62,796 bases of DNA, from positions 1-62,796 of the forward strand of contig CAZSTJ010000001.1 of assembly GCA_964609805.1 (NCBI GenBank), written 5' to 3'. The first letter of the stretch is position 1; each line of letters starts with the position of its first letter. This DNA is from an uncultured Geobacter sp. GTDB lineage: Bacteria > Desulfobacterota > Desulfuromonadia > Geobacterales > Pseudopelobacteraceae. Of this stretch, positions 7,860 through 60,271 are shown piece after piece. A program made the position numbers and the translations under genes. Below the pieces are notes generated by a model that was not told the origin of the DNA, made no database searches, and was given only the letters and a program-made list of their open reading frames with translations.

Positions 7860-8534
7860 ATGAAAAGTTTGATTCAATCGGCATCGGTTTCGGTGCCGTT
7901 ACCTGCAAAACCTCTCTACCGTTGGTTGCTTGGACTGTTTATGATCCTGGTGATTGCGATCGGGTGGCGTTATCCCGCCATGGGGTTTGCTGTGCCGGTT
8001 GCGATGATGGCCGGGATGGTCGGCGGTCTGTTCAGGGGGCGCTACGTCTGCGGCAATGTCTGCCCGCGGGGGAGCTTTTACGATACGCTCTTCACCTTTG
8101 TCGGCGGGCAGCGGCCGGTGCCGGCGCTGTTTCTCAATGCCACGTTCCGGTGGGGGATAATGGCGGTGCTGATGGGATTCATGACCTGGCGCATCGCCCA
8201 GAATCCCGGGGAATGGCGCCACTGGGGGACCGTGTTCTGGAGCATGTGCCTGATTACCACGGCGGTCGGCATTCCATTGGGCATGATGTATCGTTCCCGC
8301 AGCTGGTGCTCGTTCTGCCCGGTCGGGACCGTTGCCGCTGCTGTCGGCGGCACCAGGTACCGTCTTGAGATTTCCGATGACTGCCGCCAGTGCGGTGTCT
8401 GCGAATCGTCATGCCCTATGGGGCTGAGTATAGCGGAACATCGTGACAGCGGAGTACTACCCCACCACGACTGCATCAAATGTTCATCCTGCGCTGATAC
8501 CTGCCCCAAAGGTGCCCTCTCGTGGCCTGCTTAA
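7860..8534 (+). CDS. Membrane-bound 4Fe-4S ferredoxin-type protein (NapH/MauN-like)
   Basis: Several TM helices, 'CGNVCPRG', 'CSFCPVG' and a C-terminal 'CRQCGVCESSCP ... CIKCSSCADTCP'. Confidence 0.7.
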   Translation: MKSLIQSASVSVPLPAKPLYRWLLGLFMILVIAIGWRYPAMGFAVPVAMMAGMVGGLFRGRYVCGNVCPRGSFYDTLFTFVGGQRPVPALFLNATFRWGIMAVLMGFMTWRIAQNPGEWRHWGTVFWSMCLITTAVGIPLGMMYRSRSWCSFCPVGTVAAAVGGTRYRLEISDDCRQCGVCESSCPMGLSIAEHRDSGVLPHHDCIKCSSCADTCPKGALSWPA

Positions 8535-8686
8535 ACAGTACCCCCATCATATTCCGGACTGCTGCTTAATTTATCAGCAACAGTCCGCTTCCGTAAGCAT
8601 CCCTTCCTCCCTTTTTATGAAACAATTATGCCTATTATGCAGGCATGAACGATGTAACAGCTCAATATTTCGTTGTTTTAATGTTT

Positions 8687-8702
8687 TGGCACGCACTGTG
8701 CT
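8687..8702 (+). promoter_or_regulatory. Sigma-54 (-24/-12) promoter of nifHDK
   Basis: TGGCAC-GCACT-GTGCT, with the GG and GC elements correctly spaced. It lies 145 bp upstream of the nifH ATG. Confidence 0.65.
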
Positions 8703-8738
8703 TTAGTCAGATCACAGAGCAGTGGCAGCACCTTATAA

Positions 8739-9710
<972 letters not shown>

Positions 9711-9723
9711 GGTGACGAACGCC

Positions 9724-9826
9724 TTTGCGCCATCTCCGCGGTGGATTTCGGATTTACGTTGTGCGGCGTAGCGCTGCTACGCCTCCGCCGAAATCCTCAT
9801 CCGCCACAGAGCTGGCATCAAAATCG
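9724..9826 (+). repeat. nif intergenic structured repeat, copy 1 (after nifH)
   Basis: Starts 14 nt after the nifH stop. The core is GTTGTGCGGCGTAGCGCTGCTACGCCTCCGCCGAAATCC, with hairpin GGCGTAGC/GCTACGCC and outer pairing GGATTTCGG/CCGAAATCC. Near-identical to 11460-11563. Confidence 0.8.
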
Positions 9827-9867
9827 TTCGCCATGTGGATAAACAACAAAGCAAGCTTTTGGAGCGA

Positions 9868-9970
9868 GGGATTTTTCGGTCTGGCAAGGTTGTCAAGGAA
9901 GCGGGCGGAGCCGTAGCAGCGCTACAGCGCACAACCGGTTCCGAAAACTTACACAACCAGGCCGGAAAAG
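9868..9970 (-). repeat. nif intergenic structured repeat, copy 2 (inverted, nifH-nifD spacer)
   Basis: The reverse complement reads ..AGTTTTCGGAACCGGTTGTGCGCTGTAGCGCTGCTACGGCTCCGCC..ACCGAAAAATCC, which aligns with the forward copies. Confidence 0.65.
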
Positions 9971-9998
9971 AACCGCTCCCTTACTAAAGGAGTTTCCC

Positions 9999-11441
9999 AT
10001 GTCAAAGATACGAACTGTTGAAGGTATAACAAAGGAATCCACCGAGGCCCTCATTGCAGAAACTCTGGCGGTCTATCCCGAGAAAGCTAAAAAGAAACGT
10101 GCACCGCACCTGGGTGCCAATGATCAGGCGTCCGGCAGTGCCTGCGTCAAGTCAAACAAGAAGACCGTTCCCGGTGTCATGAGCGCCCGCGGCTGTGCCT
10201 ATGCCGGTGCCAAAGGTGTTGTCTGGGGCCCGATCCGCGATATGGTTCATGTGTCCCACGGCCCGGTCGGCTGCGGCTGGTACTCCTGGGGCACCCGTCG
10301 TAACCTGGTGACCGGCATCAACGGCGTCACTCAGTTCGCCATGCAGTTCACCTCCGATTTCCAGGAAAAGGACATCGTCTACGGCGGTGACAAGAAGCTG
10401 AAGACCCTGCTGAATGAAGCCCATGAGCTGTTCCCGCTGGCCAAGGGGATCTCGGTCCTCTCTGAATGTCCGGTCGGACTGATCGGCGACGACATCAACT
10501 CTGTTGCCAAGCAGACCTCCAAGGAGCTGGATATCCCGATTATCCCATGTAACTGCGAGGGTTTCCGCGGGGTTTCCCAGTCGCTGGGGCATCACATCTC
10601 CAACGACACCATCCGTGACTACATCATCGAGACCCGTGAGTTCGCCGAGCCTTCCAGCCCCTACGACATCTCGCTGATCGGTGACTACAACATCGGCGGC
10701 GATGTCTGGTCGGCCAAGTCCCTGCTGGAAGAGATCGGCCTCAATGTCAAATCGGTCTGGACCGGCGACGGCGAGCTGGAGAAGATCGCTGCTACCCACA
10801 CCGTCAAGTTGAACCTGATCCACTGCTACCGTTCCATGAACTACATGTGCAAGGTCATGGAAGAGAAATACGGCATCCCCTGGTTGGAGTTCAACTTCTT
10901 CGGCCCGACTAAGATCCGCGAGAGCCTGCGTGCCATTGGTGCCCGCTTCGACCAGACCATCCAGGATAAGGTTGAGATCGCCATCGCCAAGTATGAGCCG
11001 ATCATGAAGGCCATCGTCGATGAGTACCGTCCGCGACTGGAAGGCAAAAAGGTCATGCTGCTGGTCGGCGGTCTCCGTCCGCGTCATACCATCGGCGCTT
11101 ATGAGGACCTGGGTATGGAGTGCGTCGGTTCCGGCTATGAATTCGCCCACACCGATGATTATGACCGTACCGCCCCGGAAATGCCGGAAGCCACGGTGGT
11201 GTATGACGATCCGTCCGAGTACGAGTTCGAGAAGTTCGCCCATGCCCTGAAGCCGGACCTCATCGGTTCAGGTATCAAAGAGAAATATGTCTTCCAGAAG
11301 ATGGGCATCCCGTTCCGTCAGATGCACAGTTGGGACTACTCCGGTCCGTATCACGGCTACCAGGGCTTTGAGATCTTCGCCCGGGATGTGGATATGGCGG
11401 TGAACAGTCCGACCTGGAAACTGGTCAAGGCACCATTCTAG
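9999..11441 (+). CDS. nifD: Nitrogenase molybdenum-iron protein alpha chain
   Basis: 480 aa. Motifs 'VSHGPVGCG', 'CYRSMNY' and 'GYEFAH' are typical of NifD FeMo-co/P-cluster ligation. Confidence 0.97.
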
Positions 11442-11459
11442 GTATGTGACGGCGCCCGC

Positions 11460-11563
11460 TTTTGCGCCATCTCGGCGGTTGGTTTCGGATTCTCGTTGTG
11501 CGGCGTAGCGCTGCTACGCCTCCGCCGAAATCCTTACCAGCCACCGACCTGACATCAAAATCG
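11460..11563 (+). repeat. nif intergenic structured repeat, copy 3 (after nifD)
   Basis: Starts 19 nt after the nifD stop and has the same core as copy 1. Confidence 0.8.
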
Positions 11564-11636
11564 AACGCCGATAGGAACAAGCATAATAAAATCCGGCTGT
11601 GTGACAGATTGGTCGCCGGCCCCAAAGGAGTAACTT

Positions 11637-13106
11637 ATGTCAAACGCACTCGGACTTGAAATCAAAAAGGTCACCGAATATACCGCCGAAGAGGTGGAGA
11701 CGACTAAAAACTGGATCAACTCGGAAGAGTACAAAGAGAAGAACTTTGCCCGCCAGGCGCTGGTGATCAACCCGGCCCATGCCTGTCAGCCGCTGGGTGC
11801 CCAGTTGGCGGCCCACGGTTTCGAAGGGACCCTGCCGTTCGTTCACGGTTCCCAGGGGTGTGCCTCCTACTACCGTTCCACCCTCAATCGTCATTTCCGT
11901 GAACCGGCCCCTGCAGTGTCGGACGCCATGACCGAAGACGGCGCCGTGTTCGGCGGCCAGAACAACCTGCACGAGGGTCTGGAAAACGCCCATGCACTGT
12001 ACAAACCGAAAATGATCGCCGTCTTCACCTCCTGCATGCCGGAGGTCATCGGTGACGATCTGACCGCCTTCATCAAGAACGCCAAGCAGAAGGGGCATAT
12101 CCCCAAGGAACTGCCGGTACCCTACGCCAACACCCCCAGCTTCAACGGTACCCATATTCATGGCTATGACTCCATGCTGAACTCGATCCTGCAGTACCTG
12201 ACTGAAGGCAAGCAGGTTGAGGGGCGCTGCACCGGCAAGCTGAACCTGATCCCGGGCTGCGACTTCAATACCGGCGACTACCGTGAATACAAGCGCATCC
12301 TGAAGGAGTTCGGCATCCCCTATACACTGCTGGCCGATATCTCCGATACCTTCGATTCGCCCTGCGACGGCACCTATAATATCTATGCCGGCGGCACCAA
12401 ACTGGAGGACACGGCCGATTCGATCAACGGTAAGGCCACTATCGCCATCGGTCCCTATGCGACACCGAAGACCTTCAGCTTCATCAAGGACAACTTCTCC
12501 GGTAAGCATGTCTCCCTGCCGATGCCGATGGGTATTGAAAAGACTGATGCCCTGATCATGAAGATCGCCGAACTGTTCGGCAAGGATGTGCCGGAATCCT
12601 TGAAGAATGAGCGCGGCAGGGCCGTCGATGCCATGACCGATTCACAGCAGTACATGCACGGTAAGAAGTTTGCCGTCTATGGTGACCCGGACTATCTGAT
12701 GGGGTATGTATCCTTTCTGCTGGAGATGGGCGCCCGCCCGTACCACATCCTCTGCAGCCGCGGCAGCAAGAAGGCCGAGAAGGAACTTCAGGCGCTGCTG
12801 GATGGTTCCATGTACGGCGCAGGGTGCAAGATCTACATGAACAAGGACCTCTGGCACCTGCGCTCCCTGCTGATGACCGACAAGGTCGATGCCGTCATCG
12901 GCGACACCCACGGCAAATTTGCCGCCCGTGACGCCGGCGTGCCTCTGTTCCGCTTCGGTTTCCCGGTATTCGACCGGGTCAACAAGCACCGCTACCCGAT
13001 CATCGGCTACCAGGGGATCATCAACATGGTCACCGAGATCTGCAACAAGTTCATTGATATCAAGGATGAGACGTGTGAAGACCGCTTCTTCGAGATGATG
13101 CGCTAA
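11637..13106 (+). CDS. nifK: Nitrogenase molybdenum-iron protein beta chain
   Basis: 489 aa. Motifs 'ACQPLGA', 'HGSQGCASY', 'TSCMPEVIGDD'. Confidence 0.97.
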   Translation: MSNALGLEIKKVTEYTAEEVETTKNWINSEEYKEKNFARQALVINPAHACQPLGAQLAAHGFEGTLPFVHGSQGCASYYRSTLNRHFREPAPAVSDAMTEDGAVFGGQNNLHEGLENAHALYKPKMIAVFTSCMPEVIGDDLTAFIKNAKQKGHIPKELPVPYANTPSFNGTHIHGYDSMLNSILQYLTEGKQVEGRCTGKLNLIPGCDFNTGDYREYKRILKEFGIPYTLLADISDTFDSPCDGTYNIYAGGTKLEDTADSINGKATIAIGPYATPKTFSFIKDNFSGKHVSLPMPMGIEKTDALIMKIAELFGKDVPESLKNERGRAVDAMTDSQQYMHGKKFAVYGDPDYLMGYVSFLLEMGARPYHILCSRGSKKAEKELQALLDGSMYGAGCKIYMNKDLWHLRSLLMTDKVDAVIGDTHGKFAARDAGVPLFRFGFPVFDRVNKHRYPIIGYQGIINMVTEICNKFIDIKDETCEDRFFEMMR

Positions 13107-13117
13107 GTGGAGCGCGG

Positions 13118-13218
13118 CTTTTCCGCCATCTCGGCGTTGCCTTCGTCATCGCTTGTGCGGCGTAGCGCTGCTACGCCTCCGCGCTCTTTCTCGGCGCCAC
13201 CGACCTGACGAAAAATCC
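13118..13218 (+). repeat. nif intergenic structured repeat, copy 4 (after nifK, more diverged flanks)
   Basis: Starts 12 nt after the nifK stop. It shares TTTTCCGCCATCTCGGCG..TGTGCGGCGTAGCGCTGCTACGCCTCCGC..CCACCGACCTGACGAAAAATCC. Confidence 0.75.
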
Positions 13219-13256
13219 ACGCTCCTGGTCGAAAAATTATTAATCGTGCTGCAGTT

Positions 13257-13300
13257 ACACGGCCGGAAGGGAAACCTTCCGGCCGTGTCTGTTTGATTTT
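13257..13300 (+). terminator. Intrinsic terminator ending the nifHDK unit
   Basis: ACACGGCCGGAAGG-GAAA-CCTTCCGGCCGTGT followed by a T-rich tract (CTGTTTGATTTT). Confidence 0.65.
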
Positions 13301-13394
13301 GCTGTTCGAAGTATTCTCCCGTATGGTTTGTCTTGTGTTTGAATGAAAAATCATATAAAACAACATAATTGGTTGTTATTAATTATGGTCGAGA

Positions 13395-13808
13395 ATGCGC
13401 ATGGACAACAGTAATCTGCATATACTGATCGCCGAGGATGAGATCACCCACGCTGTTGCCCTGCGTCGTATGCTCGAAAAAGGCTATCCCGGGGCATACA
13501 TCACGGTTGTGCCTTCTCTTCGGGAGTTTAAGGCGAGCATTGCGTCAAAAATCCCTTCAATCGCGCTTCTTGATCTGAACCTGATTGACGGCAACAGTCT
13601 TGATATGCTGAAGGAATTACCCGCACCGCCGGCATTTCCGGTGGTGATGCTCAGTAGTTATACCAGCCGGCAGGTTGTTGCCGAGGCAGTGGCCGCAGGT
13701 GCCATGAGTCTCATCATCAAATCGCCGGAAGTGTTTATGACGATCTCTGAAATTGTCGGCACTACGTTGGAAGATTGGGCAGGTCATCAGACTTCTGTCT
13801 CGGTGTAG
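13395..13808 (+). CDS. Stand-alone CheY-like response-regulator receiver protein
   Basis: 'ILIAEDE', phospho-acceptor 'ALLDLNLIDG', 'VVMLSS', 'LIIKSP'. There is no output domain. Confidence 0.8.
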   Translation: MRMDNSNLHILIAEDEITHAVALRRMLEKGYPGAYITVVPSLREFKASIASKIPSIALLDLNLIDGNSLDMLKELPAPPAFPVVMLSSYTSRQVVAEAVAAGAMSLIIKSPEVFMTISEIVGTTLEDWAGHQTSVSV

Positions 13809-14069: not shown

Positions 14070-14098
14070 AATCTGAACCTACAATAGAATGACTGACC

Positions 14099-14152
14099 CG
14101 GCAATGGCGCCGACCGTGTTTCAGGATAACCTGAGCGGTGGCGCCGTTTTTA
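14099..14152 (+). terminator. nifEN leader: hexaloop hairpin overlapping an intrinsic terminator
   Basis: CGGC[AATGGC]GCCG, then GGCGCCGACCG...CGGTGGCGCC followed by GTTTTTATTTT. Confidence 0.6.
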
Positions 14153-14193: not shown

Positions 14194-16953
14194 ATGGCCA
14201 AACCCGATTGGTATGATGCCGACAATTGCGAGACCCACGACAAGGGTGCGCCGAAATTTTGCAAAAAATCAGAGCCGGGTGAGGGAACCGAGCGCTCCTG
14301 CGCCTATGACGGTGCCAGGGTCGTGCTGATGCCCATAACTGATGTAATCCATCTGGTACATGGCCCGATCGGCTGTGCCGGGAATTCCTGGGACAACCGC
14401 GGTGCCCGCTCCTCCGATTCTCAGCTGTACCGGCGCGGATTTACCACGGAGATGCTGGAAAACGACGTTATCTTCGGCGGCGAGAAGAAACTCTACAAGG
14501 CGATCCTCGACCTGGCAGAGCGTTACAAGGACCAGGCCCGGGCCATCTTCGTCTACGCCACCTGCGTAACCGCCATGACCGGTGATGATGTGGAGTCGGT
14601 CTGTACGGCGGCAGCGGCCAAGGTGTCCATCCCGGTCATCCCGGTCAACACCCCTGGTTTCATCGGGGACAAAAATATCGGCAACCGTCTGGCCGGCGAA
14701 ATCATGTTCAAGTACGTCATCGGCACTACTGAACCGCCGGTTCTGGGAGAATACCCGATCAACCTGATCGGCGAGTACAACATCGCCGGGGATCTCTGGG
14801 GGATGCTGCCGCTCTTCGACCGGTTGGGGATCCAGGTCCTTTCCTGTTTCAGTGGCGACGCTAAATTCGAAGAGCTACGCTACGCCCATCGGGCCAAGCT
14901 GAACATCATCATCTGTTCCAAATCCCTGACTAACCTTGCTAAGAAGATGCAGAAAGCCTACGGCATGCCGTATCTGGAGGAGTCGTTCTACGGCATGACC
15001 GATACCGCCAAGGCGCTGCGTGACATCGCCCGCGAGCTGGACAACATCGTCAACGGTCTGGAGAAGCGGACCATGCAGGACCGGGTGGAACGGCTGATCG
15101 CAGAAGAAGAGGCAAAATGCCGGGCAGCCATCGCACCCTACCGTGCCAGGCTGGAAGGGAAGACCGCCGTACTGTTCACCGGGGGGGTCAAAACCTGGTC
15201 GATGGTCAATTCCCTGACCGAGTTGGGCGTGGAAGTCCTGGCGGCCGGAACCCAGAACTCAACCCTGGAGGATTTCTACCGCATGAAGGGGTTGATGCAC
15301 AAGGATGCCAAGATCATTGAGGACACCTCCACAGCCGGTCTGCTGGCGGTGATGCGCGATAAGATGCCGGACCTGATCGTGGCCGGCGGCAAGACTAAAT
15401 TTCTGGCACTGAAGACCAAGACCCCGTTTATGGACATCAATCATGGCCGATCGCACCCCTACGCCGGTTACGAAGGGATGGTGACCTTCTCCCGGCAGCT
15501 GGACATGACGGTCAACAACCCGATCTGGGCGACCCTGAATGCCCCGGCCCCCTGGGAGAAGAGCGACGATGAACTGGCCGGTGACCTGGCCGCCAGTGCA
15601 GGGCATGGCGAAACGTTTCTGGGTGAGGATATCTCTGCGTCGCGGGTCAAGGTCTCGACCAAAGCCGCCACGGTCAACCCCCAGAAAAACTCCCCTGCCC
15701 TGGGAGCCACCATGGCCTACCTGGGAATCGACAATATGCTGGGGCTGCTGCATGGTGCCCAGGGGTGCTCGACCTTCATCCGGCTGCAGTTGTCGCGGCA
15801 TTACAAGGAATCCATCGCCCTCAATGCCACCGCCATGAGCGAGGACAGTGCAATCTTCGGCGGCTGGGAGAACCTGAAGAAGGGGATCGGCCGAGTGATC
15901 GAGAAGTTCCAGCCCCAGGTGGTGGGGGTCATGACGACCGGTCTGACCGAAACCATGGGCGATGATGTCAACAGTGCCATCAAGCAGTTCCGTGAACAGA
16001 ACCCGGAACATGACGGGGTCCCGATCATCTGGGCTTCCACGCCGGACTACTGCGGATCGCTGCAGGAAGGATATGCGGCGGCGGTGGAGTCGATCGTCTC
16101 CAGCCTGGCTGAGGGGGGGACGACCATGCCTGACCAGGTCAATCTGCTGCCGGGTGCTCACCTGACCCCGGCCGACGTGGAGGAGCTGAAAGAGCTGGTG
16201 GAGTCCTTCGGTCTGACGGTGCTGACGGTCCCGGATATCTCCAATGCCATGGACGGCCATATCGATGAGGTGGTATCACCCCTGTCTACCGGAGGTATCA
16301 CCGTCGAGGATATCAGGAAGGCGGGGCGGAGCGTCGCGACGCTGTACGTCGGTGATTCTCTTGCCAAGGCCGGTCTCAAGCTGAAGGAAAAATTCGGCAT
16401 CCCGGCCTACGGCTTCACCTCCCTGACCGGGCTTGCCGAGACCGACCGCTTCATGGAAGTGCTCTCTGCCATCAGCGGCCGGCCGATCCCGGAGAAGCAT
16501 CGCCGCTGGCGTTCGCGCCTCATGGACGCCATGGTGGACAGCCACTATCAGTTCGGCACCAAGCGGGTGGCGATCGCCCTGGAGTCCGACAACCTGAAAA
16601 CGCTGACCGGCTTCCTGGCCGGCATGGGGTGCGAGATCCAGGCGGCGTTGTCAGCTACCCGTACCCGTGGCCTGGACGGACTGCCCAGCGCCAATGTCTT
16701 TGTTGGTGATCTGGAGGACCTGGAGACGGATGCCGTCGGGGCAGATCTGATCGTGGCCAATTCCAACGGCCGTCAGGCAGCAGCCAAGCTCAAGATCGGC
16801 GCCCACCTGAGGGCCGGAGTGCCGGTGTTTGACCGGTTGGGTGCCCATCAGAAGGTTTGGGTCGGATATCGCGGTACGCTGAATTTGGTGTTCGAGGCCG
16901 CCAACCTGTTCCAGGCCAATGCCAAGGAGGCCCAGAAGTTGGCGCACAACTAA
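14194..16953 (+). CDS. nifEN: Fused nitrogenase FeMo-cofactor scaffold protein NifE-NifN
   Basis: 919 aa. The N-terminal half is NifE-like ('CAYDGARVVLMPITDVIHLVHGPIGCAG'). The C-terminal half is NifN-like ('NPQKNSPALGATMAYLGIDNMLGLLHGAQGCSTF'). They are joined by an acidic linker. Confidence 0.9.
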   Translation: MAKPDWYDADNCETHDKGAPKFCKKSEPGEGTERSCAYDGARVVLMPITDVIHLVHGPIGCAGNSWDNRGARSSDSQLYRRGFTTEMLENDVIFGGEKKLYKAILDLAERYKDQARAIFVYATCVTAMTGDDVESVCTAAAAKVSIPVIPVNTPGFIGDKNIGNRLAGEIMFKYVIGTTEPPVLGEYPINLIGEYNIAGDLWGMLPLFDRLGIQVLSCFSGDAKFEELRYAHRAKLNIIICSKSLTNLAKKMQKAYGMPYLEESFYGMTDTAKALRDIARELDNIVNGLEKRTMQDRVERLIAEEEAKCRAAIAPYRARLEGKTAVLFTGGVKTWSMVNSLTELGVEVLAAGTQNSTLEDFYRMKGLMHKDAKIIEDTSTAGLLAVMRDKMPDLIVAGGKTKFLALKTKTPFMDINHGRSHPYAGYEGMVTFSRQLDMTVNNPIWATLNAPAPWEKSDDELAGDLAASAGHGETFLGEDISASRVKVSTKAATVNPQKNSPALGATMAYLGIDNMLGLLHGAQGCSTFIRLQLSRHYKESIALNATAMSEDSAIFGGWENLKKGIGRVIEKFQPQVVGVMTTGLTETMGDDVNSAIKQFREQNPEHDGVPIIWASTPDYCGSLQEGYAAAVESIVSSLAEGGTTMPDQVNLLPGAHLTPADVEELKELVESFGLTVLTVPDISNAMDGHIDEVVSPLSTGGITVEDIRKAGRSVATLYVGDSLAKAGLKLKEKFGIPAYGFTSLTGLAETDRFMEVLSAISGRPIPEKHRRWRSRLMDAMVDSHYQFGTKRVAIALESDNLKTLTGFLAGMGCEIQAALSATRTRGLDGLPSANVFVGDLEDLETDAVGADLIVANSNGRQAAAKLKIGAHLRAGVPVFDRLGAHQKVWVGYRGTLNLVFEAANLFQANAKEAQKLAHN

Positions 16954-25540: not shown

Positions 25541-25650
25541 GAAAAAAAACGGGTCACCATATCGTTGAGATATTTCGGCGACCCGGCTGTCTCAGGGAGA
25601 CCCTTGGGCTTTCCGTCCCATCCTCGCGGATGGTTTAGTATTATCGTCTG
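25541..25650 (-). promoter_or_regulatory. GEMM-I class cyclic-dinucleotide riboswitch with intrinsic-terminator expression platform
   Basis: The minus-strand RNA is ..ACUAAACC-AUCC-GCGA-GGAU-GGGACGGAAAGCC..GAGACAGCCGGGUCGCCGAAAU. This matches the Vc2 core GCAAACC-hairpin(GNRA)-GGGACGCAAAGCC...GGGGUUACCGAU. Terminator GGGUCGCC/GGUGACCC plus U8 lies at 25541-25584. Confidence 0.55.
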
Positions 25651-29861: not shown

Positions 29862-29962
29862 TGCTTATCGAGAGTGGTGGAGGGAAAGGCCCTGCGAAAC
29901 CACAGCAACCGGCCAATCAAGGCGACAGGTGCTAATTCCTGCCGAAAGGCAAAGATGAGAGG
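29862..29962 (+). promoter_or_regulatory. SAM-I (S-box) riboswitch
   Basis: CTTATCGAGAGTGGTGGAGGGAAAGGCCCTGCGAAACCACAGCAACCGG...AGGTGCTAATTCCTGCC..AAAGATGAGAG matches the S-box consensus (cTTATCaAGAG.GG.GGAGGGA..GGCCC..GAA.CC.GCAACC...GGTGCtAAttCC...AGATGAG). Confidence 0.85.
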
Positions 29963-33594: not shown

Positions 33595-33773
33595 CCGATC
33601 TGCTCCCGGTGCCTGAAAGTGGCGATGAATGTTTAATGAAACCGTATTTCCGTGAATATATATCAGAAATCGAGATAAATGGTAGCCGTTTTGATGAAAT
33701 ATTTCATTTTGACGGCACGCTGCCACGGATAAATTGAATTGACAGTGGACCGTCAATATTCTAGTTTATCGAA

Positions 33774-33856
33774 AACGCTGGGGGAGTTTCGACTGAGAGC
33801 GGCTGAGGGCCGCGACCCTTCGTACCTGATCCGGGTAATGCCGGCGTAGGGAAGCG
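33774..33856 (+). promoter_or_regulatory. TPP (THI-box) riboswitch
   Basis: CGCTGGGGGAG..CTGAGAGCGG..ACCCTTCGTACCTGATCCGGGTAATGCCGGCGTAGGGAAGCG matches the THI element consensus (CTGAGA ... ACCCTT.GAACCTGATC.GGTAATACC.GCGTAGGGA). Confidence 0.85.
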
Positions 33857-33874
33857 CAAAAGTCCAGGACTTGA

Positions 33875-46394: not shown

Positions 46395-46403
46395 AGAGAT
46401 TTG

Positions 46404-46515
46404 AATAACACTGAGCAACGAAGCAACGGAGAACAATTCATAAGGTATAAAATACTTTTCCGGTTTCCTGCTGTTGAATTCAGATTTTCTCAGTTGCTCA
46501 GTTGCTCCGTGTTAT
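46404..46515. repeat. Inverted-repeat cassette (GAGCAAC 9-mer family), empty copy 2, between two genes of the carboxylase operon
   Basis: The left arm is AATAACACTGAGCAACGAAGCAACGGAG. The right arm is CTCAGTTGCTCAGTTGCTCCGTGTTAT. The spacer is 57 bp. Confidence 0.8.
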
Positions 46516-46556
46516 CGAAAAGATTCTTTCATTCTTTGAATTGGAGATAGAGACCA

Positions 46557-51901: not shown

Positions 51902-52340
51902 GAATAACACGGAGCAACGGTGCAACGGAGATGAAGCTTTTTGATTCTGAGTTGACAGACCAGATCATTGGCAGCGCGATCACAGTGCACAGCACCTTGG
52001 GACCCGGTCTTCTGGAGTCCGTGTATGAAACGTGCCTGGAGTATGAATTGAGTTCTGTAGGCTTGAAGGTGGAGAGGCAAAAAAGTCTGCCGGTCAGCTA
52101 CAAAAGTATCAAGCTGGATGATGGCTTACGTATGGATATGGTTGTAAACAGCCAGGTCATCATTGAACTAAAATGTGTTGAAAGCCTGTTACCTGTTCAC
52201 GAAGCGCAGCTTTACACTTACCTGAAACTTTCCGGAATTCGAACAGGGTTGTTAATCAATTTCTATACGAAGCTTCTGAAAGACGGTATAAAGCGAATTG
52301 TTTGTTGATTTTCTCCGTTGCTCTGTTGCTCCGTGTTATC
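51902..52340 (+). mobile_element. Inverted-repeat cassette (GAGCAAC 9-mer family) carrying a GxxExxY gene; putative IVS-like/mobile cassette
   Basis: The arms are GAATAACACGGAGCAACGGTGCAACGGAG (51902-51930) and CTCCGTTGCTCTGTTGCTCCGTGTTATC (52313-52340). They abut the start and stop of the enclosed ORF. It is inserted between the mutase and epimerase genes. Confidence 0.5.
51931..52308 (+). CDS. GxxExxY protein (PD-(D/E)XK nuclease superfamily)
   Basis: 125 aa. Carries 'GPGLLESVYE' (the GxxExxY motif), 'MDMVV', 'IELKCV'. The ATG directly follows the left repeat arm; the ORF-track start 51844 overlaps the mutase 3' end. Confidence 0.8.
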   Translation: MKLFDSELTDQIIGSAITVHSTLGPGLLESVYETCLEYELSSVGLKVERQKSLPVSYKSIKLDDGLRMDMVVNSQVIIELKCVESLLPVHEAQLYTYLKLSGIRTGLLINFYTKLLKDGIKRIVC

Positions 52341-52355
52341 AAAGAAAGGTTTTAA

Positions 52356-54669: not shown

Positions 54670-54806
54670 AGGCACAGTGAGCTACGGAAAAAACAGAGAA
54701 CAGCCCTTCTGGAAATTTTGACAGACAAAATTGCCTGTTTACTGACGGTGTATTAGTATTTTTCACTAGGTAGGTTTCTACGTTGCTCTGTTGCACCGTG
54801 TTATTC
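54670..54806. repeat. Inverted-repeat cassette (GAGCAAC 9-mer family), copy 4 with a degenerate left arm
   Basis: The right arm CTACGTTGCTCTGTTGCACCGTGTTATTC (54778-54806) is clear. The left arm GGCACAGTGAGCTACGGAAAAAACAGAG (~54672-54700) is only weakly similar. Confidence 0.45.
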
Positions 54807-54888
54807 AGTCATATGTCGTAGGATTGCTTTGACTTTATCCGGTACTTTTGCGATAATCCGCCGGCTCATCCCACGAACTGGAGGCACC

Positions 54889-59072: not shown

Positions 59073-59227
59073 GAATAACACGGAGCAACGGGGCAACGGG
59101 GAAAACCTGAAATGTATTCAAAAGCAAATCCTGGTTCAGAAGAGCGCCTTGGGGTGAGTTGACTTTTGTGGTCCAGTCCTTTGTTGTAAGGTGTTGCTTT
59201 CTCAGTTGCTCCGTTGCTCTGTGTTAT
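59073..59227. repeat. Inverted-repeat cassette (GAGCAAC 9-mer family), empty copy 5
   Basis: The left arm is GAATAACACGGAGCAACGGGGCAACGGGG. The right arm is CTCAGTTGCTCCGTTGCTCTGTGTTAT. The spacer is 99 bp. Confidence 0.8.
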
Positions 59228-59230
59228 ATT

Positions 59231-60271
59231 TTACGGAAACAGCGCCAGCCCCTCCAGCCCCATGGTCTCCGGGAAGCCGCAGACGATGTTCATGTTCTGC
59301 ACCGCCTGCCCCGAGGCCCCCTTCACCAGGTTGTCGATGGCAGAAATCACAATGATCCGCCCGGTGCGTTTGTCCACCAGCGGGGCGATATCGCAGAAAT
59401 TGGAGCCGCGCACGAAGGCGGTGCTCGGCAGACTCCCCTGGGGCAGCACCCGCACAAACGGCTCACCGCGATAATATTCCTCATACAGCTTGACCAGCTT
59501 TTCGGTGATGATCGCCTTGCGCGGGGCGGTATAGACCGTGGAGAGGATACCCCGGTCCATGGGTACCAGGTGAGGGGTGAAGGTCATGACGATCTGCTCG
59601 CCGGCCAGCAGCGATAGCTCCTGCTCGATCTCGGGGGTGTGACGATGGACCCCGCCGACACCATAGGCCTTGTATCCTTCGTTGACCTCGCAGTAGAGGC
59701 TGTCAACCTTGGCGGCCCGACCGGCACCAGTTACCCCCGAAGCGGAGTCGGCGATAATCTCGCCGGTCTTGATCAATCCCTTCTTGAGCAGCGGTGCCAG
59801 GGCAAGGATGATACTGGTCGGGTAGCAGCCGGGATTCGCCACCAGCTTCGCCCCCTTGATCCTTGCCCGCCGGACCTCCGGCAGACCGTAGACCGCCTTC
59901 TTCAGATTGGCCGGGTTGAGGTGCGGCTCATACCAGGCACCGTAGACCTGCGGGTCGCTCAGACGGTAGTCGGCAGAGAGGTCGATGACCCTCTTGCCCA
60001 GCTTCAGGAAGGTGGGGACGACCTCCATGGCCGCCTTGTGCGGCAGGGCGGTAAAGATCAGGTCGGCCTTATCTGCCACCCGTACCGGTTCCAGGTTTTC
60101 CAGAACAAGGTCGCACCGGCCGCGCAGGGTGGGAAAGATGTCGGAGATCCGTTTGCCGGCACTCTGCTCCGAGGTAAGGCAGGTTACGGCGACTTCGGGG
60201 TGACGGTACAGGATTCGAATCAGTTCAAGCCCGGTGTAACCGCTGGCACCGACTATGGCAACATTCAACAT
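59231..60271 (-). CDS. argC: N-acetyl-gamma-glutamyl-phosphate reductase
   Basis: '[14 protein letters not shown]', active site 'ANPGCYPTS'. 346 aa. Confidence 0.95.

Follow-up and report, generated by a model that had tools for sequence, protein, structure and literature searches.

Four hairpin repeats in the nifHDK operon of an uncultured Geobacter belong to a dispersed Geobacteraceae family first catalogued in Geobacter metallireducens

In Geobacter metallireducens, 24 “predicted short RNA elements”, Gmet_R1001-R1024, were catalogued as intergenic sequences of 110-115 nt with a “central palindromic structure”, GRCGTAGCGCTGCTACGCC (Aklujkar 2009, BMC Microbiol 9:109). Here, we describe four copies of a repeat in the nifHDK operon of an uncultured Geobacter sp. 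(assembly GCA_964609805.1, contig CAZSTJ010000001.1, positions 1 to 62,796; this whole stretch of 62,796 nucleotides is called the window below), which are members of the Gmet_R1001-R1024 family, a family dispersed through the Geobacteraceae. Table S4 of the 2009 catalogue places one member, Gmet_R1008, 5' of the gene for the nitrogenase alpha chain, i.e., in the nifH-nifD spacer, while other members precede nuoBCD, cox subunit IV, etfA, etfB, cysT, dapL, speA, and more genes. The family was also reported there from G. sulfurreducens (GSU0160.1, between dapAB and dapL), G. uraniireducens, and Desulfotalea. The elements were listed as putative 5' regulatory RNAs of the genes downstream of them, and no function was assigned.

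The core of the repeats in the window equals the published palindrome, and the published length and arm sequences match as well: the rows for R1002, R1004, R1005, and R1024 share the arm motifs (CTTTTCCGC...TTGTGCG / CTCCGCG...CGAAAAATC) of the 120-copy alignment presented below. The published elements and those of the window are also alike in being intergenic, mostly within operons, and in having a member in the nifH-nifD spacer (R1008), whereas G. metallireducens has a single nif copy and the window has four. An earlier note on this DNA, made from the sequence alone, had not recognized the repeats as a described nif regulatory element; they are not undescribed, as the 2009 catalogue already contains the family and a member in the nifH-nifD spacer. 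That paper does not mention any anchoring to stop codons, bias in orientation, covariation, conservation between orthologous copies, or division into subfamilies. Most worthy of follow-up is the tight stop-codon anchoring together with compensatory evolution at orthologous sites. Among the papers of the library searched, no other contains the core sequence, and Rfam 15 places no family on the repeats at its gathering threshold, nor at E values up to 5 within positions 8500-13500. The lone weak Rfam match, tpke11 with 27 bits, falls on the terminator of the operon.

The hairpins of puf and malEFG are the paradigms of intercistronic stabilizers, and stabilization at malE-malF of Escherichia coli is brought about by a repetitive extragenic palindromic (REP) element. 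We liken the Geobacter repeats to REP and to enterobacterial repetitive intergenic consensus (ERIC) elements in their probable mode of action, and they are members of neither. Like the REPs of E. coli and the bacterial interspersed mosaic elements (BIMEs), they are high-copy extragenic palindromes transcribed in operons, frequently near the upstream stop codon. In E. coli, REPs stabilize the mRNA upstream of them and, when they lie closer than 16 nt to a stop codon, cause ribosomes to stall (PMC12306157, citing Liang 2015 and Newbury 1987); the same paper puts a large fraction of REPs within 15 nt of the upstream stop codon. REPs differ in being simple GC-rich hairpins of 20-40 nt, frequently clustered as BIMEs, whereas the Geobacter elements are irregular, 120-130 nt long, and composed of seven or eight helices. 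The two have no sequence similarity, and no association with a REP-associated tyrosine transposase (RAYT) was found here among 770 neighboring open reading frames (ORFs) in 8-kb blocks. The anchoring is also much tighter in the Geobacter element than in REPs, with about 80% of copies within 4 nt of the stop codon.

ERIC elements are imperfect palindromes over their whole length with a conserved central inverted repeat, as are the Geobacter elements, and they are found, facing either way, between the genes of operons in regions that are transcribed, with a reported orientation-dependent modulation of mRNA stability. To our knowledge, a strong orientation bias combined with stop-codon anchoring has not been described for ERIC. 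The ERIC elements, or intergenic repeat units (IRUs), of Enterobacteriaceae and Vibrio are miniature inverted-repeat transposable elements (MITEs) of ~127 bp (PMC3184786). The Geobacter element is likewise of a size around 127 nt; its sequence is unrelated, its hosts belong to another phylum, and no TA target duplication was observed in it. Geobacter has a described MITE of its own in Chunjie of G. uraniireducens, which is 178-235 bp long and A+T-rich, with 21-bp terminal inverted repeats and 9-bp direct repeats (Chen et al. 2008, summarized in PMC3184786). Chunjie is similar in being a Geobacter repeat that enters operons without disrupting them and has a stable RNA fold. Identity with Chunjie was rejected, as the present element is about 125 nt long with about 60% G+C, and no direct repeats were seen.

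For nif genes specifically, the nif1 cluster of Anabaena provides a case in which RNA processing and stem-loops set differential transcript stability, the nifH segment having the longest half-life (PMC4284476). The likeness lies in hairpins within a polycistronic mRNA under which segment half-lives and protein ratios would differ. The hairpins of such operons, Anabaena included, differ in being locus-specific and not dispersed repeats, and the stem-loops of Anabaena are found at 5' processing sites, not at stop codons.

The nif operon and its four repeat copies

The operon and its repeats occupy the following positions of the window:

8847-9710, + strand: nifH, from the ORF list (Pfam PF00142 Fer4_NifH, 9.3e-131); TAA stop at 9708-9710
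9712-9834, + strand: copy 1, post-nifH, operon-oriented; core with 0 mismatches; -58.1 kcal/mol, z -4.68; 103 bits
9861-9979, - strand: copy 4, inverted relative to the operon, before nifD; core with 3 mismatches; -54.0 kcal/mol (transcribed strand); 90.7 bits
9999-11441, + strand: nifD, from the ORF list (Pfam PF00148 Oxidored_nitro, 7.1e-96); TAG stop at 11439-11441
11450-11570, + strand: copy 2, post-nifD, operon-oriented; core at 11495-11526; -56.9 kcal/mol, z -3.5; 108.7 bits
11637-13106, + strand: nifK, from the ORF list (Pfam PF00148 Oxidored_nitro, 3.6e-131); TAA stop at 13104-13106
13109-13225, + strand: copy 3, post-nifK, operon-oriented; core at 13152-13183; -48.7 kcal/mol, z -2.0; 114.1 bits
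13257-13288, + strand: intrinsic terminator of the nif operon, from the terminator scan; a GC-rich hairpin of 14 bp with a T-rich tail after it

The 28-nt core GTGCGGCGTAGCGCTGCTACGCCTCCGC is present at 9761, 11498, and 13155 on the + strand (0 mismatches each) and occupies 9905-9932 on the - strand (3 mismatches), and no further core is present elsewhere in the 62,796-base window (chance expectation 0.00). A covariance model of the family recovers the same four copies only, at 91-114 bits, with no diverged extra copies in the window and none at its fused nifEN gene. The core search and the covariance model thereby confirm the four copies, one of them inverted in the nifH-nifD spacer, that the earlier note had reported. 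Within the core, GGCGTAGCGCTGCTACGCC is exact in the three forward copies, and the inverted copy reads GCTGTAGCGCTGCTACGGC.

The repeats had been described as 103 nt long and as starting 12-19 nt past the stop codons. RNA folding gives wider full hairpins of about 120 nt, and measured from these the forward copies start only 1-8 nt past the stops: 1 nt from the nifH TAA to the first paired base of copy 1, 8 nt from the nifD TAG to the main outer stem of copy 2, and 2 nt from the nifK TAA to copy 3. Copy 1 is a long irregular hairpin with the outer stem CGAACG (9716-9721) / CGTTCG (9825-9830) around a conserved core at 9758-9789, and the outer stem of copy 3 is GGAGCG / CGCTCC. Copy 4 ends 6 nt before the Shine-Dalgarno sequence of nifD (AAAGGAG, 9986-9992). 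The outer pairing GGATTTCGG/CCGAAATCC proposed earlier is correct in the post-nifH and post-nifD copies, and the proposed conserved 3' tail GACCTGACATCAAAATCG is exact in the post-nifD copy and not exact in the others. The elements are about 120-130 nt long with a G+C content of ~60% (56-63%).

Folding and the terminator scan both support the view that these are structured hairpins and not simple terminators. It was borne out that no copy is followed by a U-tract; on the + strand, the scan calls sites only at the nifH leader (8766) and at the operon end (13257), with none at the copies, and the operon terminator is a separate hairpin (13257-13288), distinct from copy 3 and 31 nt downstream of it. 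A terminator role for the window copies was rejected on these two grounds, the absent U-tract and the absence of any call. The suggestion that the two opposed copies of the nifH-nifD spacer form a long duplex holds insofar as such a duplex is feasible, at -102.4 kcal/mol. As the favored state it was rejected, being weaker than both local hairpins together (-108.8 kcal/mol), and in the minimum free energy fold of the entire nifH-nifD spacer copy 1 stays its own hairpin.

Dispersal, placement, and structure of the family

A pattern scan with a degenerate 24-nt core, using one genome per species, returned at least 117 loci from 53 assemblies. The copy statistics that follow cover the window and the 117 listed loci (8-kb blocks, cited by L numbers). 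From an alignment of 120 copies (A2), we built a covariance model (R1) with 131 positions and 35 pairs, which finds 146 copies at or above 63 bits in the window and the listed loci. Nearly all of these loci belong to Geobacteraceae/Desulfuromonadales, including Pelotalea chapellei, Oryzomonas japonica, Geobacter argillaceus, Geobacter spp. AOG1 and OR-1, Geotalea, and many metagenome-assembled genomes.

Only eight of the at least 117 listed loci are nifHDK loci, and the genes upstream of the copies represent 119 Pfam families. Nitrogenase genes are the commonest upstream neighbors (17 of 114), followed by cysD-type genes (5), guaA, argF, and groEL (3 each), and groES and dapB (2 each), which makes nifHDK the most frequent single host operon among the matches listed. 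Because the core is found beside many unrelated genes, the family is not nif-specific. The idea that it might have colonized the nif spacers specifically is thus contradicted by the same element at 117 or more loci in 53 assemblies, by the 119 upstream families, and by five copies in an arg operon. Scatter over dozens of unrelated intergenic regions is also what the earlier note had itself named as speaking against its reading. An enrichment for genes of nitrogen or amino-acid metabolism is partly seen, as nif, arg, dapB, and guaA recur; groES/groEL, cysD, FtsX-type permeases, and ~100 other families are hosts as well, and we claim no link specific to nitrogen.

Several copies per operon are common in the sample. 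The arg operon just mentioned has the gene order argB-argD-argF-argG-NUDIX-unknown-argH and comes from Geobacter sp. AOG1; each of its five copies starts from a stop codon, and four of the five have in common a private apical variant, GCGTAC-YYYY-AGTACGC:

L056 365-6138 (NZ_BLIZ01000001.1, 1056001-1064000): five co-oriented copies in the AOG1 arg operon

Across the sample, 115 of the 146 copies (79%) directly follow a long co-oriented ORF. In 91 of these 115 (79%), the outer stem begins between -3 and +4 nt relative to the stop codon, most often at 0-1 nt. TAG (46), TAA (35), and TGA (34) all serve as the stop, so the stop codon itself is not part of the element. Co-orientation with the upstream gene is 90:9 in the BC type and 23:13 in subfamily A, the two groups into which the copies fall. 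The interval to the following gene varies widely, around a median of about 50 nt. The 20 nt 3' of the element have an A+T content of 61-66%, as compared with 40% in the element and 44-48% in the upstream coding sequence. At operon ends, a separate classical terminator lies 20-40 nt after the element, as it does in the window, which ties the element to the stop codon and not to the 3' end of the transcript. The orientation bias might be explained by the conserved CCUCC, which would put a Shine-Dalgarno-like GGAGG into the mRNA of inverted copies; the inverted copy of the window reads GGAGC.

Structurally, each element forms one long hairpin in which seven or eight short helices alternate with internal loops. 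RNAalifold finds compensatory (two-sided) changes in 27 of 35 pairs across the family. In the model-registered alignment, 93.4% of cells are paired as compared with 70.3% in shuffles. The score for covariation reaches 0.575, while it is 0.175 in shuffles, with none of 500 shuffles as high and slid controls at 0.171 or below. The outer stems vary freely from copy to copy. In copies outside the search-pattern selection, the apical loop and the upper stem vary too, some having 20-nt insertions, and the irregular lower apical helix TTGTGCGRCGTA...TACGYCTCCGCG is kept even where the loop varies; it is this lower apical helix, not the loop, that is the conserved determinant. As RNA, the invariant irregular helix reads UUGUGCGRCGUA...UACGYCUCCGCG. 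An apical-loop insertion of ~20 nt (GCTGTTTATGCCCTTTGGGTAC) was seen at L036 4085-4231, L085 7465-7611, and L064 1296-1444, and the occurrence of the same insert at different loci suggests that the loop tolerates cargo with the lower helix retained.

The 39 copies of subfamily A have an A-run, the hairpin, and a T-run, i.e., the shape of a bidirectional terminator. The 107 copies of the BC type, which include all four of the window, have a T-run, the hairpin, and an A-run, with a U-tract after the hairpin in neither orientation; the A-run and T-run are thus exchanged between the arms in one subfamily. The termini pair, e.g., GGTTGYTGAAAAACAG with CTATTTTTGARCAACC in subfamily A, and the whole element is an imperfect palindrome with terminal inverted repeats. 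At L044 5226-5359 and L089 4633-4765, predicted ORFs run with their 3' ends into inverted copies of subfamily A, and the recurring element-derived C-terminal peptide, ...GCSKMVRS(S/A)HPQKAP..., may be either a real extension or an artefact of ORF calling.

The two strands of the element are not equivalent. The complementary strand (opposite GCG..GTAGC..CTCC) folds better in almost every copy, by a mean of about 11 kcal/mol; in 18 nif copies the gap is 2-26 kcal/mol, and it is independent of the orientation of the copy to the genes. The core alone is strand-neutral (-16.6 vs -15.2 kcal/mol). On the usual mRNA strand, C exceeds G in 145 of 146 copies and T exceeds A in all 146, and 65% of the unpaired positions are pyrimidines. 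When the arms are counted against one another there are 360 A·C-type and 161 G·U-type mismatches. Since the consensus paired columns have no A·C excess, this excess arises in the pyrimidine-rich internal loops. The strand asymmetry is therefore intrinsic to the family and a matter of composition, with no sign of local adaptation to the transcript, although the polarity may leave room for a factor that reads one strand. Strand comparison as a test for RNA-level selection was discarded as non-discriminating, the complementary strand being the better one in almost all copies.

At the nif loci, a copy follows each of nifH, nifD, and nifK in at least three genomes, those of the window, L074, and L048. 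L001 has the post-nifH and post-nifD copies, L002, L031, L047, and L077 have one copy each, and L007 has two after nifK; the nifH-nifD (H-D) spacer is empty in L007, and the nifD-nifK (D-K) spacer is empty in L031 and L007. The nif copies cluster by operon position across genomes, which points to vertical inheritance from an ancestor that already held all three copies. Identities between genomes are as follows:

post-nifH copies: 72-83%
post-nifD copies: 68-84%
post-nifK copies (L047, L048, L074): 76-80%

Copy 1 has its orthologs in the post-nifH copies of L001, L048, L074, and L077 (72-83% identity) and copy 2 in the post-nifD copies of L001, L002, L048, and L074 (71-84%). The inverted copy 4 is closest to the post-nifK type (L048_K and L047_K, 73%) and has no counterpart in the H-D spacers of L001, L048, L074, and L077; it is lineage-specific. 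Within the genome, the post-nifH and post-nifD copies of the window are each other's closest relatives, and this kinship, together with the private apical variant of the arg operon, suggests local spread or gene conversion.

Between the window and these genomes, the orthologous elements share 73-84% identity, whereas four-fold degenerate sites of the adjoining nif genes share only 42-66%. At the protein level, the closest NifHDK of the sample share 87-92% identity with those of the window (L048, L002, and L001, Pelotalea chapellei). Among ten strictly orthologous post-nifH and post-nifD copies, 20 of 42 pairs have changed on both sides and still pair, where 10.0 such pairs are expected and none of 500 shuffles has as many. 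In the same ten copies, 93.8% of cells are paired, against 81.6% in shuffles and 34-48% in slid controls. Judged from these sequence comparisons, the hairpin is under purifying selection at fixed positions of the nif operon.

Possible modes of action and rival explanations

Because the nif copies are selected for their structure, the role in RNA stability or processing that the earlier note had considered remains the best generic reading. With moderate confidence, we interpret the repeats as cistron-end hairpins, similar to REP and ERIC, whose most likely role is to tune in cis the decay of the mRNA and/or the termination of translation. The sequence comparisons show which family this is, how it is dispersed and structured, and that its copies covary, face mostly one way, adjoin stop codons, and persist at orthologous sites; the mechanism at the level of RNA and any effect on stoichiometry are inferred. 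Each copy would be transcribed within the operon mRNA and fold into an irregular hairpin of about -50 to -58 kcal/mol, its base at the stop codon of the upstream cistron, with an A/U-rich unstructured linker and the next ribosome-binding site following. The nif copies are old, one having been present after each of nifH, nifD, and nifK in the common ancestor of several genera, and purifying selection has since then acted on the hairpin and on the invariant helix UUGUGCGRCGUA...UACGYCUCCGCG. Once an endonuclease has cut the A/U-rich linker, the hairpins would be a barrier to 3'-to-5' exonucleases, and each cistron segment would in this way gain a half-life of its own. A hairpin may also modulate termination and re-initiation or uncouple the translation of adjacent cistrons, since an outer stem that starts 0-2 nt past the stop would, by the established geometry of the ribosome, lie within the footprint of a ribosome that is terminating. 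Under either mode, the relative output of NifH, NifD, and NifK would be tuned. In support of such hairpins, nif spacers without the element have strong hairpins of unrelated sequence in the D-K spacer of L031 (-37.4 kcal/mol, z -6.9) and the H-D spacer of L007 (z -2.9).

Several observations weigh against such cis-acting hairpins. The better fold of the complementary strand means that selection is not simply maximizing the stability of the mRNA hairpin. At operon ends, the terminator already protects the 3' end, and a decay barrier there would be redundant. The sample was seeded with a nif-derived core and covers the matches listed, so its frequencies are not unbiased. Part of the family is clearly still proliferating, and some of its properties could reflect transposition biology. 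Finally, one nif spacer without the element, D-K of L007, folds only weakly (z -1.5).

The repeat might be purely selfish, a MITE- or REP-like sequence of no host function for which one-way insertion after a stop codon is least harmful and whose hairpin is just its own inverted repeats, although we consider this unlikely. As a description, the REP/MITE-like alternative of the earlier note was essentially right: the element is a dispersed, multi-copy imperfect palindrome, patchy at orthologous sites (H-D empty in L007; D-K empty in L031 and L007) and with lineage-specific extras such as the inverted copy of the window. Within one genome, subfamily A copies from separate contigs reach 96-98% identity (68-92% within a genome for the BC type), which indicates that part of the family was amplified recently, and no function has been demonstrated since the 2009 cataloguing. 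A selfish repeat is harder to reconcile with nif orthologs that persist across genera at 73-84% identity against 42-66% at four-fold sites, and with 20 of 42 pairs changed on both sides in situ, where an immobile neutral copy should have decayed. A DNA target preference is also unlikely to account for the narrow spacing to the stop codon (-3 to +4 nt for 91 of the 115) next to stop codons of all three kinds. The usual companions of mobile elements were not found: there was no transposase or RAYT, nor any recurrent family, among the 770 neighboring ORFs of 117 loci (8-kb blocks, not whole genomes); the translated ORFs between three inverted pairs resembled HAD-type, CysD-like, and methyltransferase-like proteins by eye, without a Pfam scan, and none resembled a transposase; no autonomous insertion sequence with matching ends turned up in the 8-kb blocks or on plasmids and phages; the flanks, inspected by eye, had no consistent direct repeat that would represent a target-site duplication; and plasmids and phages gave no matches to the element. 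Improbable in our view is an element acting at the DNA level, in which a single-stranded DNA hairpin or cruciform of the complementary strand is bound through the invariant helix by an HUH/Y1 protein (RAYT or IS200/IS605-type) or another protein and any RNA effect is incidental. The complementary strand does fold better, by a mean of about 11 kcal/mol, whatever the gene orientation; the polarity is universal, with negative GC skew in 145 of 146 copies and positive TA skew in 146 of 146; and an invariant irregular helix under a freely varying loop resembles a protein recognition site, such hairpins being recognized in REP-RAYT systems (PMC3479197). However, no Y1 transposase, RAYT, or recurrent gene was found among the 770 neighboring ORFs or between the inverted pairs, the core itself is strand-neutral (-16.6 vs -15.2 kcal/mol), and stop-codon anchoring with 90:9 co-orientation is a property of transcripts and translation, not of DNA.

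A regulatory RNA dedicated to nif, setting the NifH:NifDK ratio possibly through a duplex of the opposed copies, is an explanation to which we attach very little probability, even though nitrogenase genes are the commonest upstream neighbors (17 of 114 among the matches listed), post-nifH, post-nifD, and post-nifK copies are common to the window, L074, and L048, and the nif copies are conserved and selected. About 85% of the copies stand beside unrelated genes of 119 Pfam families, the arg operon has five, 23 of the 24 copies of G. metallireducens are non-nif, and the fused nifEN of the window has none; the duplex is less stable than the local hairpins, and the inverted copy is absent from related nif loci. 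Dispersal has already largely refuted this explanation, and with it a tempting false lead is removed. It is similarly far-fetched that the repeats are partial terminators or pause sites attenuating read-through from nifH into nifDK. They are strong hairpins placed directly after cistrons, and subfamily A has elsewhere the A-run, hairpin, and T-run of a bidirectional intrinsic terminator. In contrast, the four window copies have the order T-run, hairpin, A-run with no U-tract in either orientation, the essential nifD, nifK, argG, and argH need read-through, and operon ends have separate classical terminators.

Returning to hairpins that act in cis at cistron ends, one more elaborate version, which we regard as speculative and rather doubtful, would make the BC-type elements domesticated RNA modules that mark the ends of cistrons. 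A ribosome in the act of terminating would melt the outer stem, and a dedicated trans-acting factor, be it an RNA-binding protein, an RNase, or Rho, would recognize the invariant helix (UUGUGCGRCGUA/UACGYCUCCGCG, whose internal loops are pyrimidine-rich on the mRNA strand), so that upstream translation would gate mRNA processing, decay, or polarity. If true, this would amount to a genome-wide system of the Geobacteraceae for subunit stoichiometry (NifH:NifDK, GroES:GroEL, arg enzymes), and we know of no such cistron-end system having been described. Decay barriers or termination-coupled insulators would explain unequal protein output from nifHDK, groESL, and arg operons, and they could be transferred as parts with which to adjust the cistron ratios of engineered nif clusters. 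In any case, an old catalogue entry becomes testable as a set of ~120-nt stop-anchored, one-way-facing hairpins kept by compensatory evolution across genera, and the recently amplified copies beside ancient fixed ones make a good case for studying the domestication of a mobile repeat.

Other elements in the window and related loci

The nif-specific RNA control known for the window is an attenuator in the nifH leader, of the kind through which GnfR, an ANTAR response regulator, governs Geobacter nif genes by antitermination (Ueki & Lovley 2010). Positions 8753-8766 of this leader match the published GnfR site CAGGCAANGGCGCC exactly, and the match overlaps a GC hairpin with a T-run at 8766-8790. 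A site with one mismatch is located at 14098-14111, upstream of the fused nifEN gene (14194-16953).

A small conserved hairpin at 11593-11622, just 5' of the Shine-Dalgarno sequence of nifK, reads approximately CCGG-N-CGTG-N-ACRGAT-N-GT-N-CCGG and then AGGAG. The D-K spacers of L002, L031, L048, and L074 contain it as well, and as that of L031 is without the repeat, this hairpin is a separate conserved element of the nifK leader. The same spacer of L031 (788-905) contains an inverted repeat of about 27 bp, and both spacers of Desulfuromonas sp. BM302 (L007 3540-3641 and 5082-5170) contain AAGGTTAAAGG-type palindromes.

A second repeat family, unrelated to the nif repeats, is present in the window as tandem GTTGCTC(A/C)GTTGCTCCGTGTTAT-like units, often as inverted pairs 70-400 nt apart, at the following positions:

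282-413
46403-46519
51902-52343
54772-54808
59073-59231

Rfam additionally identifies three riboswitches in the window at its gathering threshold:

29862-29961, + strand: SAM riboswitch
33770-33869, + strand: TPP riboswitch
25574-25649, - strand: c-di-GMP-I riboswitch

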